A DNA stretch of 64,000 nucleotides from a virus. Of the stretch, positions 9,003-54,632 are shown one piece after another. Every line of letters starts with the position of its first letter. Position 1 is the first letter of the stretch. A program made the translations under genes and the position numbers. The stretch is taken from IMG/VR virus record IMGVR_UViG_3300024520_000057, positions 9,215-73,214 of that record. One strand, given 5' to 3'. The notes under the pieces were generated by a model. The model worked only from the letters and a program-made list of their open reading frames with translations, was not told the DNA's origin and ran no database searches.

Positions 9003-9410
9003 ATGGATTGGAAACTTTTTTTAGTCCTATTTGTAATAATCCTGCCAATGTTTCTAATAGCACAGCCACACACAGTTATTCTTAAATTTGATGGAACACC
9101 AATTCCAGATATAAAAAGCTATCAATTGTTCAAAGTTGAGTTGCCAGATACCAATGAGTTTTGGGACTGGGATAGCAAGCCACTTGATTATGTTCCATAC
9201 AGAACAATTCAACACACCAACCACATGTATTATCTTGATACAACAACTGTAAATTTACCTTATGCTCAATTTGCAGTTTTACAGATGGATAAGTCTGGAA
9301 ATATAGATAAAAAGTTTAATCAGTTGAGCTATGTTGTAGAATTACAGGATTCAGTGACAGTTATTGATATTGAAGTTTCAGGTTACAGAATAAAGCAAAG
9401 GAAATATTGA
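9003..9410 (+). CDS. Exported protein with Sec signal peptide
   Basis: MDWKLFLVLFVIILPMFLIA|QP; AAGGAG SD. Confidence 0.7.
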   Translation: MDWKLFLVLFVIILPMFLIAQPHTVILKFDGTPIPDIKSYQLFKVELPDTNEFWDWDSKPLDYVPYRTIQHTNHMYYLDTTTVNLPYAQFAVLQMDKSGNIDKKFNQLSYVVELQDSVTVIDIEVSGYRIKQRKY

Positions 9411-10039
9411 TGAAAGATGGACACAAACTTTTGATTACAGTTATTGTTATTATACTTATGGCTGTATTGTGTGATAGTTATGTAAAAGCACAATCATGGG
9501 TAGGCTATGATCCTATACATCCTGATCCTGTAGCTGATACCATGCACATTAATTATTCACCACTTGATGAAAGTTTTAACAATGTAGATATATTAGTGAT
9601 AAATGGGCTGGATAGTTTTTGGGTGTTTACAGATACACTGTGGGATGATTCAGTTACAATCAATAGTGTTGTAAAAATGAAATTTCCAATTAATGGTGAT
9701 TATAGGATAATGAATTTCACCTTTCTTGATTCCCAAGTGGATACAAATAAAAATTATTATTTCAAGTATCAGGTATCAAATGTTCAGAATCCACCAGTAT
9801 TAGACATATGGGATGGTGTTTCATTTTTACCATTAACAGCAATTCATGGTGACAGTGCAGTTATAAAAGGTGAAATTAATTTTAACATTGTAGGTAATAA
9901 GCAGTATATAGTGTTGCAAATTTATAGGGGAATTGATACAGTGTTATATAATGCATCTGTATCATTAACAGATCCCAGATGGAACTTTTCCAATTTTAAA
10001 TTTGAAAGATTAGGTGATTTAAGAATAACAAAGGAGTAA
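9407..10039 (+). CDS. Exported protein with Sec signal peptide, D[ST]-rich
   Basis: ...LLITVIVIILMAVLCDSYVKA|QS; DTM, DTL, DSV, DSA, DTV. Confidence 0.7.
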   Translation: MMKDGHKLLITVIVIILMAVLCDSYVKAQSWVGYDPIHPDPVADTMHINYSPLDESFNNVDILVINGLDSFWVFTDTLWDDSVTINSVVKMKFPINGDYRIMNFTFLDSQVDTNKNYYFKYQVSNVQNPPVLDIWDGVSFLPLTAIHGDSAVIKGEINFNIVGNKQYIVLQIYRGIDTVLYNASVSLTDPRWNFSNFKFERLGDLRITKE

Positions 10040-10041
10040 TC

Positions 10042-51174: not shown

Positions 51175-51188
51175 GTTAGGAGAAACCT

Positions 51189-54100
51189 ATGAAACAAATA
51201 TTTTTAATACTAATGTTTTTGTTTGGTTTAGCATTAGCACAAATTGAATCAGTATCATATCAAAGAGTTCCAAGAACAGGTGGTGGTAAGGTAATTCCTG
51301 GATTGGATGTAGATTTGTATTATGGTGGAACAAGCAACAAAGCATATGATTTAACAGAAGTGAGTAGTGCTCCAGGAAAATATAACAATTCAAGTGTTGA
51401 ACCAGGAATTTATGATGTGTGGATTAATGGAAGTTTGAATGAAAGCAGTATTGTAGTTGGGACAGTAGCTGATTCAACTTTAACACTTGTAAAAATGACA
51501 AAGGCTACAATTGATTATATTGGTTCAGGTGGAAGTGTAACCAATAATCCAGATGATATCACATTAGAAGCAAAGCCTGGAGATAAAATAGGAATTATAA
51601 CTGCTTATTTGGATACAATAACATCTAATATGAATTGGGTGTCATTACAACTAAAAGGTGGTATCCCTGATGATGCTACAAGTGCCAACACTGCTTTGAC
51701 CAATGCAATTTCAGATGCTAATAGTGATTACAATGGGGGAAGTGTATTTATTCAGGGTGGGAAATATTATGTTCCTGGAGCAATAACACAGACAACTGAT
51801 GTAAAGCTATTTGGTGATCCTTCAGGTGCAAGTCATTTCAGAGGGAATAGCACCTATTTTATGAGATTAAATACAGATACAGTTATAATTCAAAATCAGA
51901 GGTTTAGTGATTATGCTAATGTTTTTGAAATAAAAGGAAATATCAAGTATTTGGAAATAAGTAATTGCACATTTGATAATAATACATCACCATTAGATAA
52001 TCCAGATGATGCCAATGATTATAAAATTGAAACACTGGTATTAAAGGATAATATTGTAAAAAATTGTAACACTGGATTTATGGTTGATACTGATAGTTTA
52101 CAGAATGCATGGGCACTTAATAATCTTATATACAATCTCAGTAGCACCAATGCCACAATTGGAATAATGTTTGGCAGGGATGATTCCAGTAAAAATTACA
52201 ATAGAAATTATATCATTGCTGGGAATGTAATTGATTCAGTTTTACAAACAGATGCCACAGCTCATGAAACACATGGGATTTATGTTTTTGGTGATAATGT
52301 TGTAATAGATGGAAATGTAGTCAATAATATAGAGGCATCTAATAGTGCTGTTACAACTGCTGTTGAAGGGATTTATGCCAAGCTTCAATATGGGAGTATA
52401 TCAAATAATATGTCAGAAGATGGTGGATTTTATGAAGGTGTAATTGCAGTAAAGGGCAGACCAGTTGAGGACATTGATTATAGAAGTTTGGGATGGAATA
52501 TCATTGTAGCAAATAATAATTTAATAAATACAGATACATACCATCAAGGTGCTGGTCACCCTACAGAAAGTGTGGGAATAAATATACAAACAAGAGATGT
52601 ATTGGTTGTAAATAATTATTTAGATGGTTTTACAGATGATGCTATTTATGCACCACAATCATCAAATCCATGGGACAATGTTACAATCAGAGGAAATCAC
52701 ATTGTTAATACTAAAGGAGCAGAGGCAATAAGGTTTGCTAACAGTGGAAGAAATTTAACAATTGAAAATAATTTAATATTCAGAATAATATCTTCCAGTG
52801 CATCTGCTAATAGAATATATGGTATGGATATAGGAAGGCTTGATGAGGAACTTGATGATGTGATAATAAGAAATAATACTATATTGGTTGATTCAACAGA
52901 AGCCACATCTGATAATTTTCCAAGAGGAATAAGACTGTTAGCAAGAGATTATGAAATGAATAATGTTATTATTGATGGTAATATATTTGATTTTAAATCA
53001 GCTAATGTTACCACATCAACAGCAATTGAGTTTTATGGCTATGCTACTGACCATGTTTTTGATAGTGTTATTGTTAAGAATAATGATTTCAGATATGTGG
53101 ATGCTTTATTTGCTGAAAATGGAGAACAGCTTCAATACATTACAAGTTATGATAATTTAAGCTATGATGTCCAAGCAATGTTTGATTTAATGGAAGGTAA
53201 AGGAATATTCACAACTGTTAAGGATACATTCATTGCAGCAGTGAATTCATTGGACATATCATATCCAGGATATTATAATTTTAATGGAGCTGTAATAAAT
53301 GTTGATACACTAACTTTTCTTCCAAAAGGAAATTCCAATAGCAATGTCATTGAAATAAGGTCTGATGATGTAACAATTGCTAATTTAACAATATTAGGAA
53401 ATTATGATGTTACAAGAGGCATATACCTTACATCAGGATATGGCAACATAACAATTAGGGATGTGAAATTGATTGGAACAGGACAAGGGATAAGGATGGA
53501 TGACAGCCACAATGTATTGATTGATAATGCAACAGTGTGGGATTCAACTGTATCCACTGATGGTGTGTATGGGAGTAGTTCAGCTGGAGATAGTGTTACT
53601 GTAACTAATTGCAATCTTTATGCTGAAAGAGGAATATATTTCAAATCAAATTTTTCAGATGGCTCCAAGGGTGCATATGATTTGATAATTTCAAATAACA
53701 GAGTTGTTTATCCAACAGGACTTGGGACTCATTCAGAAGGCATAACAGCTTCATATGCAGTCAGAGCAAAAATAATAAATAATTTTATTGATGGATTTGA
53801 TTTAGGAATCAGCATGACAGGTGATACACTTTACAATGGTGGACATCTGGTTTCAGGGAATACAGTTAATGGCAGAACAAATTCCATTGAATTTGTTAGA
53901 GTTAGAAATGGAAAGGTTGCTAATAATTTCTTTTATGCAGATAGTGGTGTTGCTAATTTTAGTAATTGTAAAAATTTAACAATAATTGGCAATACATTCA
54001 GAGGTGATTATTACAATGATGCCCACATGTCAAGATTTAGTGCTGTTGGATTGATTTATATGTTAGGATATGCTGATGGTGATGGATATGTTGATCCAGA

Positions 54101-54632
54101 CAGTTCAGTTGATAATACACTTATAATGGGCAATAAACTTTCAAATGGTGGAGATGGAATAAGGTGGTTGTCATCATTGGTTCCAACTTCACATATACAA
54201 ATTAACAACAATCAATTTGATTCACTAAGACAAGCTATTTATATTGGTTCATCTGGTTCAATGCAACAAGGATACATCCAAGTAAATAATAATGTGGCTA
54301 AAAACATCCATGCCTCATTTTTTGTTGCAGCAGATTCAATAACATCACTTCAAGTGAATTTCAATATGGTTCAATTTGATTCCAGCCAGAAACAGGAAGC
54401 ACCACCATTGAATTGGGGAATGAGATTGGTAGGAGTTGATGATTTACAAATGATAGGGAATTTTTGGGAATGTATAAATGGTGGTTTAAATAGACCAGTA
54501 ACAACTCAAACCAATGAACACAGAAATATAATACACTTGGGCAATATTTATAAAGATTTTATCAATAACACTCCAACTTGGGTAAATACAACTACAGTGT
54601 ATGATACATTGAATATCATGTATGATTTTTAA
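51189..54632 (+). CDS. Pectate-lyase-like right-handed beta-helix tailspike/depolymerase with Sec signal peptide
   Basis: MKQIFLILMFLFGLALA|QI; GGIPDDATSANTALTNAI..GGSVFIQGGKY; many IxxNxI repeats. Confidence 0.8.
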   Translation: MKQIFLILMFLFGLALAQIESVSYQRVPRTGGGKVIPGLDVDLYYGGTSNKAYDLTEVSSAPGKYNNSSVEPGIYDVWINGSLNESSIVVGTVADSTLTLVKMTKATIDYIGSGGSVTNNPDDITLEAKPGDKIGIITAYLDTITSNMNWVSLQLKGGIPDDATSANTALTNAISDANSDYNGGSVFIQGGKYYVPGAITQTTDVKLFGDPSGASHFRGNSTYFMRLNTDTVIIQNQRFSDYANVFEIKGNIKYLEISNCTFDNNTSPLDNPDDANDYKIETLVLKDNIVKNCNTGFMVDTDSLQNAWALNNLIYNLSSTNATIGIMFGRDDSSKNYNRNYIIAGNVIDSVLQTDATAHETHGIYVFGDNVVIDGNVVNNIEASNSAVTTAVEGIYAKLQYGSISNNMSEDGGFYEGVIAVKGRPVEDIDYRSLGWNIIVANNNLINTDTYHQGAGHPTESVGINIQTRDVLVVNNYLDGFTDDAIYAPQSSNPWDNVTIRGNHIVNTKGAEAIRFANSGRNLTIENNLIFRIISSSASANRIYGMDIGRLDEELDDVIIRNNTILVDSTEATSDNFPRGIRLLARDYEMNNVIIDGNIFDFKSANVTTSTAIEFYGYATDHVFDSVIVKNNDFRYVDALFAENGEQLQYITSYDNLSYDVQAMFDLMEGKGIFTTVKDTFIAAVNSLDISYPGYYNFNGAVINVDTLTFLPKGNSNSNVIEIRSDDVTIANLTILGNYDVTRGIYLTSGYGNITIRDVKLIGTGQGIRMDDSHNVLIDNATVWDSTVSTDGVYGSSSAGDSVTVTNCNLYAERGIYFKSNFSDGSKGAYDLIISNNRVVYPTGLGTHSEGITASYAVRAKIINNFIDGFDLGISMTGDTLYNGGHLVSGNTVNGRTNSIEFVRVRNGKVANNFFYADSGVANFSNCKNLTIIGNTFRGDYYNDAHMSRFSAVGLIYMLGYADGDGYVDPDSSVDNTLIMGNKLSNGGDGIRWLSSLVPTSHIQINNNQFDSLRQAIYIGSSGSMQQGYIQVNNNVAKNIHASFFVAADSITSLQVNFNMVQFDSSQKQEAPPLNWGMRLVGVDDLQMIGNFWECINGGLNRPVTTQTNEHRNIIHLGNIYKDFINNTPTWVNTTTVYDTLNIMYDF

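Follow-up and report, generated by a model that had tools for sequence, protein, structure and literature searches.

Predicted glutamine-exposing leader proteins of an uncultured tailed phage, a candidate spike among them, are enriched in O-glycosylation sequons

Assembly of tailed-phage particles is generally regarded as a wholly cytoplasmic process, and known tailspikes carry no leader and fold in the cytoplasm. A 64,000-nucleotide stretch of viral DNA (hereafter the window; bases 9215–73214 of the 73,214-base record IMGVR_UViG_3300024520_000057, estimated completeness 83%) raises the question of whether some phages depart from this rule. It belongs to an uncultured, siphovirus-like phage with a portal, an HK97-type capsid, a tape measure and a hub of 1416 amino acids (aa), and the last gene of its tail module encodes a candidate spike that begins with a predicted Sec-type leader. 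Four smaller products begin in the same way. All five would expose Gln after cleavage, as do the 'Q-rule' substrates of signal peptidase I (PMC5837995), and all carry the motif D-[S/T]-[A/I/L/V/M/T] (the sequon), which is the site of general O-glycosylation in Bacteroidota (PMC12871550; here and below, cited papers are drawn on for their accessible text). Here we describe how leader and sequon excess go together in this genome and in the wider spike family, and weigh what the phage might gain by exporting these proteins.

The first-pass annotation had listed five Sec-type leaders with Gln directly after the cleavage site, and all five N termini read as claimed: ...MFLIA/Q, ...SYVKA/Q, ...AVGFC/Q, ...SFSFS/Q and ...GLALA/Q (the slash marks the predicted cut) in the products of genes 9003, 9407, 13709, 49816 and 51189, which are named by their first position in the window (Table 1). 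Leaders were called by hydropathy plus a −3/−1 rule devised for this analysis, under which 5/5 proteins have a tripartite n–h–c leader with small −3/−1 residues; the 9003 leader has a single Lys in its n-region and the 13709 leader has Cys at −1. The five leaders offer 1, 4, 2, 3 and 5 candidate (−3,−1) sites, and every leader has one that is followed by Gln. With Gln at 2.97% of window residues, the joint chance of five Gln(+1) is about 2.5e-6. The pattern is real, and it recurs in relatives of the phage.

Two other destinations were considered. Type IX secretion (T9SS) cargo was rejected, because the C-terminal domain Por_Secre_tail (TIGR04183) had no match at E ≤ 0.01 in six frames of the whole record; the same model gave 85 and 103 matches in the metagenome-assembled genomes (MAGs) G004 and G005 introduced below. 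A lipobox, with Cys at +1 after a small residue, is absent from the leaders, in which the sole Cys near the leader end follows Leu (9407) or Phe (13709); these two products may have a relaxed version. Against Pfam, PHROG and NCBIfam, the four small leader proteins gave only sub-threshold matches (PorU N-domain, E 0.029; phrog_11279, E 6.5e-4), with none in any of the three for the 49816 product. In a word-based search of 5.8 billion proteins, the 9407 product and the spike each retrieved only themselves.

The proteins predicted to be exported are also rich in sequons. We counted D[ST][AILVMT] and took expected counts from within-protein shuffles that keep composition. The mature parts of the 5 signal-peptide proteins hold 25 sequons against 7.8 expected (z 6.4), and 13 membrane proteins of less than 400 aa hold 16 against 4.7 (z 5.2), with Poisson tails of 7.5e-7 and 3.4e-5 for these two classes, whereas the other 82 proteins hold 53 against 42.8 (z 1.6). 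Control motifs, eight in all (with E, N, G or K for D; the reversed motif; a non-aliphatic third residue; A/G or N/Q for S/T), stayed flat in both exported classes, at z −1.4 to +1.4. The enrichment proposed earlier for exported over cytoplasmic open reading frames (ORFs) survives this composition-matched shuffling and is confined to exported proteins; the leaderless hub, an internal cytoplasmic control, has close to its expected density (Table 1) and the capsid has 0 sequons. Counts made by hand for the spike, the 9407 product and the hub were exact (14, 5 and 7), as was the claim of further sequons in membrane-anchored products, with 3 each in 5340 and 6247 (earlier given as 6271) and 2 each in 6771 and 10606.

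Sequon contexts are all different, save one common to the paralogues 5340 and 6247, so the sequons are not copies of one repeat, and a repeat artefact was rejected as their source. They lie in the mature parts of leader proteins and, in anchored proteins, after the membrane segment or between two segments, so that the motif-bearing parts are predicted to be non-cytoplasmic. In Escherichia coli K-12, taken as a negative control, 15 exported proteins hold 25 sequons against 18.6 expected and 37 cytoplasmic proteins hold 28 against 33.9.

The spike is the largest of the exported proteins, and its predicted layout is a leader, a small beta-sandwich N-module (residues about 20–92), a linker with the motif IGSGGSVTNNPDD and two beta-helix regions. 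The beta-helix assignment is based on Pfam NosD (24.7 bits, cut-off 23.6), with Pect-lyase at 22.8 bits falling below its cut-off of 27, and the protein matches tail-spike PHROG 2234 at E 7.7e-7. It joins a distal domain of receptor-binding type to a distal position in the tail module, with a conserved N-module and a variable C terminus. The paralogues 5340 and 6247 give weak matches (E 2.6e-3 and 8.2e-4) to stretch 308–342 of the same PHROG, and the spike matches it outside this stretch. In a structural model, residues 2–16 form a helix and residues 22–90 form strands with predicted local distance difference test (pLDDT) values of 75–93, whereas residues 93–200 are below 50; the modelled N-module (residues 20–92) begins two residues after the cleavage site. 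A Foldseek search with the N-module returned nothing at E ≤ 0.001 and a VIA-wide fold search reached a best Z of 7.1 among unrelated beta-sandwiches (an Ur-lambda tail-tip chain scored Z 5.6). The model is therefore consistent with a generic transthyretin/CnaB-like beta-sandwich, for which we claim no specific fold family. An Atlas look-up of spike residues 1–160 gave scores of at most 0.83, mostly to viral clusters, which serve as leads only.

Homologues of the spike separate the leader from the fold. Run without a profile against 1.84 billion representatives, HMMER yielded 152 matches to the spike, 150 of which were listed; the family counts that follow concern the 149 listed matches other than the query. 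Among 56 N-module homologues, the 47 with a leader followed by Gln (SP/Q) hold 390 sequons against 136.2 expected (ratio 2.86, z 22.9), 5 with a leader but without the Gln pattern hold 55 against 16.4, and 4 that lack a leader or are truncated hold 12 against 11.3. The remaining 93 are beta-helix-only homologues, 71 of which are leaderless and hold 201 sequons against 234.1 expected (ratio 0.86). A ratio above 1.5 is found in 45/52 SP/Q homologues versus 11/75 leaderless ones (Mann–Whitney P 5e-16 for the ratios of proteins of at least 200 aa). Sequon density across the 149 homologues thus follows the presence of the leader. With leaderless beta-helices at 0.86 and SP/Q proteins at 2.86, the sequons come with the leader and not with the fold. 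All of the N-module homologues read by eye (21/21) have an n–h–c leader ending in a small residue before Gln, and no column other than the +1 Gln (Q18) reaches 90% conservation in an alignment of 54 N-module proteins. Cys richness was tried as a second export mark and rejected (SP/Q homologues, 0.64 versus 1.18 Cys per 100 aa). Distal Pfam domains in the family comprise Beta_helix (11), Pect-lyase (9), NosD (7) and Laminin_G_3 (3), then BNR and CBM_4_9; one N-module joined to varied distal domains is the pattern of receptor-binding proteins.

The position of the spike gene is conserved. At the end of the tail module the hub gene is followed by genes for 149-aa, 300-aa and 1147-aa proteins, and in the relatives G1, L062 and L066 genes for a hub, a protein of about 300 aa and an SP/Q spike follow one another in the same order. 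The L062 spike has 35 sequons in 1042 aa, and the spike of L066 is a fragment that retains SP/Q. In L063 the orthologue at the same position starts with an N-module exactly where the mature protein would start; it has no leader and 0 sequons in 609 aa, and the aligned positions of two family sequons are non-sequons. L062 and L066 versus L063 offer a natural experiment within conserved synteny. The 300-aa product has homologues in G1, G2, G3, L062, L063 and L066 and matched no Pfam family. Used as an anchor for further loci, it returned no locus beyond two already analysed in a viral scan and one 2.1-kb contig in a metagenome scan, and a complex prediction of it with spike residues 18–160 scored 0.00, which says nothing either way. 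In G2 and G3 its homologue is followed by leaderless fibre-like genes with 0–2 sequons. Short leaderless ORFs at the end of these fibre genes (G2, 74399–74686, 95 aa; G3, 51415–51684, 89 aa; re-oriented contigs) resemble the spike N-module (…G.PL.GATVTLR…). A search of relatives G001–G003 with the spike and the 49816 product matched only spike residues 1–148, in G001.

Two relatives bear on the host, which the first-pass annotation had placed in the Fibrobacterota–Chlorobiota–Bacteroidota (FCB) group. A capsid 58% identical to that of the window lies on a 59.6-kb, 31.6% GC contig of G004, a 2.5-Mb MAG of 32% GC labelled Chloroherpeton thalassium, and another, 59% identical, lies on a 6.5-kb, 63% GC contig (G005:C133) of G005, a MAG of 67% GC. 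Their many T9SS C-terminal domains mark both as FCB-type organisms, and the second capsid implies that the phage group spans hosts of about 30% to 67% GC. In the part of G004 analysed (457 kb, 332 ORFs), 28/72 leader-like N termini have a −3/−1 site followed by Gln, at a Gln content of 3.2% of residues, and exported proteins hold 212 sequons against 100.1 expected (z 12), compared with 123 against 131.1 in cytoplasmic proteins. G005, at 67% GC, was dropped as further host evidence and serves as a negative control; it has neither the Q-rule (Gln after the site in 8/34) nor the sequon signature (39 against 60.2 in exported proteins). SusD has 1 match in G004 and 0 in G005; Pfam Glu_cyclase_2 was found in neither MAG, and M28-type cyclases were not searched.

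Translation signals narrow the placement. A Shine–Dalgarno core is present for 46/78 window genes (background 13%) and 62% of phage genes, for 39–56% in relatives and for 19–28% of G004 genes, compared with 0/59 in the cultured Flavobacteriia phage phi18:3, which suggests that the host is probably not a classical member of the Bacteroidota. An FCB-group host therefore stands as the best reading, given the T9SS-rich MAG, the Q-rule and the sequons, whereas a classical Bacteroidota host has become improbable: the host is probably an FCB-group bacterium on the Bacteroidota/Chlorobiota side that has the Q-rule and sequon signature. The Q-rule holds in Bacteroidetes and also in Ignavibacterium album (77%) and Chloroherpeton thalassium (55%) (PMC5837995), and sequon enrichment is reported, in the accessible text, mainly in Bacteroidota and in Fibrobacterota (PMC12871550). 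The O-glycosylation signature may extend beyond classical Bacteroidota, or the label of G004 may be wrong.

We consider it likely that the phage exports its spike and small envelope proteins and has adapted them to host glycosylation. The host, a diderm, would cleave Sec leaders before Gln and O-glycosylate exported proteins at D-[S/T]-[AILVMT]. For at least five of its proteins the phage would use Sec and signal peptidase I, and about eight small ones would be anchored in the inner membrane and lie mostly in the periplasm. Occupancy of motif sites in non-cytoplasmic proteins is almost complete, motifs introduced by engineering are glycosylated and the system works across species (PMC12871550), so a phage protein with such motifs in such a periplasm should be glycosylated by default. 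A periplasmic oligosaccharyltransferase of the host would then modify the exported phage proteins en bloc, and the new N-terminal Gln would be cyclised to pyroglutamate. The three-fold excess implies selection: parts exposed to the periplasm would have come under selection to bear, or to put up with, about three times as many sequons as expected by chance.

What the spike would do next is less secure. That it attaches to virions is suggested by where its gene lies in the tail module, by the modular make-up of its family and by the leaderless orthologue, and we give this reading slightly less than even weight. If so, the spike would most likely fold and be glycosylated in the periplasm and meet the cytoplasm-built particle once the inner membrane is breached on lysis. 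Only tentatively do we extend this to the whole scheme, in which a large, uncultured group of tailed phages with hosts of Bacteroidota/Chlorobiota type would build its receptor-binding spike outside the cytoplasm by Sec export, pyroglutamate formation, addition of a host O-glycan and docking at lysis. In such a two-compartment scheme, the phage's own genes at 25844–33208 for glycosyltransferase, aminotransferase and acetyltransferase activities might alter the host glycan on the spike.

The proteins might instead be exported and glycosylated but never join the virion. Acting in the envelope of the infected cell, they might break down or bind surface polysaccharide as it is made, prevent superinfection or assist in lysis and release; or they might be soluble enzymes that are liberated upon lysis. 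This account fits the cytoplasmic assembly of tailed-phage virions, the missing T9SS C-terminal domain, the lack of a fitting lipobox and the presence of seven of the small exported or anchored genes around the NlpC/P60 gene at 5.3–11.2 kb, a typical lysis neighbourhood. Q-rule leader proteins of Porphyromonas gingivalis phages have likewise been read as possible envelope modifiers (PMC10367356). The spike gene, however, closes the tail module, coming after those for the hub and the protein of about 300 aa in an order that is conserved, and no other fibre gene follows the hub in this lineage; a leaderless protein at the corresponding place in L063 has the N-module too; and the distal domains of the family are swapped (beta-helix, Laminin_G_3, BNR, CBM_4_9) in the manner of receptor-binding proteins, with lectin-like members that have no obvious periplasmic job. 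A cultured phage adds to this. In Cellulophaga phage phi18:3 (NC_021794), gp085, gp086 and gp087 (32891–38583) begin with leaders (...FGYS/Q, ...GVSA/Q and ...GLNA/Q) and are annotated in GenBank as structural or tail proteins from tandem mass spectrometry (MS/MS) proteomics, so leader proteins can be virion parts. We therefore judge a purely non-virion role rather unlikely, although it deserves to be kept in view.

Two further accounts would remove the adaptation itself. If the exported genes had recently been captured from a host whose exported proteins are rich in sequons, the excess would simply be inherited. Exported proteins of G004 are about 2.1-fold enriched, and leader proteins of close relatives show no enrichment, as expected if the signal were tied to particular captures. 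The excess here is 3.2-fold against that 2.1-fold, however, and is also seen in the 45/52 diverged SP/Q family members among the matches listed, including the phage-type N-module and linker; the word-based search with the spike and the 9407 product gave only the queries, and tblastn against 50,697 phage records was empty. Recent capture is improbable on this evidence. More improbable by far is an artefact in which the hydrophobic N termini are non-functional and the motif excess is a by-product of a beta-rich composition rich in Asp, Ser and Thr. Such an artefact could draw on the use of our own hydropathy plus −3/−1 rule and on the ratio of 1.35 in E. coli exported proteins, but the shuffles keep composition, the 8 neighbouring motifs are flat, homologous leaderless beta-helices have a ratio of 0.86 and only the +1 Gln column of the family is near-invariant, with an n–h–c leader before it in 21/21 homologues examined.

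Several observations weigh against export with adaptation to glycosylation and against docking. The expected enrichment fails in the closest relatives, whose leader proteins hold 8 sequons against 6.7 expected (G1), 2 against 5.4 (G2) and 8 against 5.4 (G3), or 18 against 17.5 pooled, and the G1 spike orthologue has only 6 against 4.2; what carries the signal in this genome is thus 5 + 13 proteins, together with the wider family. In phi18:3, gp085–087 have 1 sequon each against about 3 expected, so export and sequon richness are separable. In E. coli the excess in exported proteins is mild and non-significant at 1.35, so a small part of the sequon effect may be structural. Leader calls were made with hydropathy and the −3/−1 rule, not with a trained predictor. 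Host evidence from MAG binning is indirect, the species label of G004 is at odds with its 32% GC and the Shine–Dalgarno usage of the phage (62%) is above that of G004 (19–28%). Finally, with no T9SS C-terminal domain the exported spike would stay periplasmic until lysis, and no route from there to the virion is known.

Every plausible gene of the window (Table 1) is on the + strand, GC is about 35% and no tRNA genes were found in the window. The portal (18493), head–tail connector proteins and the tape measure (40587) were identified through PHROG matches. Megablast and tblastn searches with the capsid region, the capsid, the spike and the homologue P0024 gave no match in 50,697 GenBank phage records. 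The terminase gives no host clue, its matches, to actinophages and others, being only 28% identical. The large terminase (15187–17996) is two ORFs in different frames, and residues 1–101 of ORF1 and 31–528 of ORF2 align to 1–98 and 82–581 of the single 581-aa terminase of G1, so an insertion makes up about 300 aa of ORF1 and the beginning of ORF2; the start of ORF2 resembles an intein end (...HNS).

Genes for glycan building, all leaderless, lie at 25844–33208, 12281–13084 and 14255–15202, and most are kept in relatives regardless of a leader on the spike. The encoded enzymes might modify a glycan on a lipid carrier, or they might add glycans to virion proteins in the cytoplasm. A 924-aa protein (33771–36545) has a hydrophobic N terminus without a −3/−1 site and a repeated ...sdG.k.GDS[AV]... 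unit; it holds 8 sequons against 7.3 expected from composition and matches PHROG 12240, of unknown function. A leaderless protein (13201–13704), whose gene ends four bases upstream of the leader-protein gene 13709–14251, matches Cohesin below threshold (E 4e-4, 21 bits; cut-off 24.1).

Table 1. Features of the window, in window coordinates (start only where one number is given); expected sequon counts are from shuffles
Feature	Position	Strand	Remarks
N-terminally anchored protein, 145 aa, paralogue of 6247	5340..5777	+	3/3 sequons after membrane segment
N-terminally anchored protein, 168 aa	6247..6753	+	3/3 sequons after membrane segment
N-terminally anchored protein, 113 aa	6771..7112	+	2 sequons
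N-terminally anchored protein, 112 aa, no −3/−1 site	7931..8269	+	1 sequon
Candidate endolysin, leaderless NlpC/P60-type peptidoglycan hydrolase	8253..8678	+	among small membrane-protein genes; 0 sequons
Leader protein, 135 aa, LIA/Q	9003..9410	+	2 sequons, 0.48 expected; weak sub-threshold family matches only
Leader protein, 210 aa, VKA/Q	9407..10039	+	5 sequons, 0.80 expected; orphan
Protein with two hydrophobic segments, 107 aa	10286..10609	+	2 sequons
Protein with hydrophobic segments at both ends, 189 aa	10606..11175	+	2 sequons between segments
GT2	12281	+	
Leader protein, 180 aa, GFC/Q	13709..14251	+	2 sequons, 0.57 expected
Glyco_trans_1_2, three copies	29021, 30540, 14255	+	Pfam
Glycos_transf_1	25844	+	Pfam
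Methyltransferase	30043	+	
DegT aminotransferase	31504	+	E 1.4e-96
GNAT	32663	+	
Tape measure protein	40587..45554	+	PHROG 1533, E 7.9e-96; 9 sequons, 6.3 expected
Tail hub, leaderless, 1416 aa	45551..49801	+	homologous to relatives' hubs; 7 sequons, 5.9 expected
Leader protein, 149 aa, SFS/Q, between hub and spike	49816..50265	+	2 sequons, 0.54 expected
Candidate adaptor, leaderless, 300 aa	50272..51174	+	directly upstream of spike/fibre gene in every relative examined; 1 sequon
Tail-module terminal spike (candidate), 1147 aa	51189..54632	+	leader 1–17 (ALA/Q); 14 sequons, 5.5 expected

Bacteroidota-type bacteria are major groups in gut, marine and soil environments. For the phages that infect them, assembly in two compartments and a glycan shield made by the host, if true, would change how host range, serum or protease stability and antibody evasion are viewed. 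Phage proteins could then also serve as reporters for testing what the Bacteroidota O-glycosylation system, whose function is still unexplained, does. A leader, Gln(+1) and a sequon excess together would offer a cheap sequence signature for host prediction, and the sequon signature may, as the result for G004 hints, extend to a lineage labelled Chlorobiota. The Q-rule, the sequon, its enrichment in Bacteroidota and Q-rule leaders in P. gingivalis prophages were already known; what appears to be new is the combination of a predicted Sec-exported O-glycosylation substrate with a putative phage receptor-binding protein. We came upon no account of leaders together with O-glycosylation sequons on the spikes or fibres of tailed phages in the accessible text of the literature searched, including PMC6199706, PMC12386605 and PMC5723332 (the supplements of PMC10367356 and PMC12871550 lay outside the search).

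How the proteins of this phage relate to known systems can be summarized as follows. Like the substrates of general O-glycosylation in Bacteroidota, they are non-cytoplasmic by leader or anchor, carry the motif in soluble regions and are enriched in it over cytoplasmic proteins; unlike them, they are phage-encoded, include a tail-module spike, would be glycosylated only on our reading and may belong to a host outside classical Bacteroidota. The accessible text of a review of that system, which reports the motif as enriched in Bacteroidota proteomes, does not contain the word 'phage' (PMC12871550). With the Q-rule substrates of signal peptidase I they share a Sec leader predicted to be cleaved before Gln (PMC5837995). 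Five Q-rule leader proteins of unknown function were described in P. gingivalis prophages in 2023, in a paper whose accessible text mentions neither glycosylation nor structural proteins with true leaders (PMC10367356); here the Q-rule marks a whole spike/fibre family and occurs together with sequon enrichment. Cultured phi18:3 shares virion or tail proteins with SP/Q leaders, but it belongs to another virus family (Pachyviridae) and we found no sequence relation to it. In phage tailspikes and fibres of the P22 gp9 type, a conserved N-terminal anchor carries exchangeable beta-helix or lectin distal domains. The window spike resembles these and PHROG 2234 in its place at the end of the tail module, its pectate-lyase-like beta-helix, its conserved N-module and the varied C-terminal domains of its family; it differs in having a leader and in lacking a sequence match among the 50,697 GenBank phage records. 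In mycobacteriophages, virion proteins are glycosylated in the cytoplasm by phage-encoded glycosyltransferases, for which no leader is needed. Glycans on virion proteins are the likeness there, and the window phage also encodes glycosyltransferases; here, by contrast, the capsid has 0 sequons and the sequon excess is confined to exported proteins.

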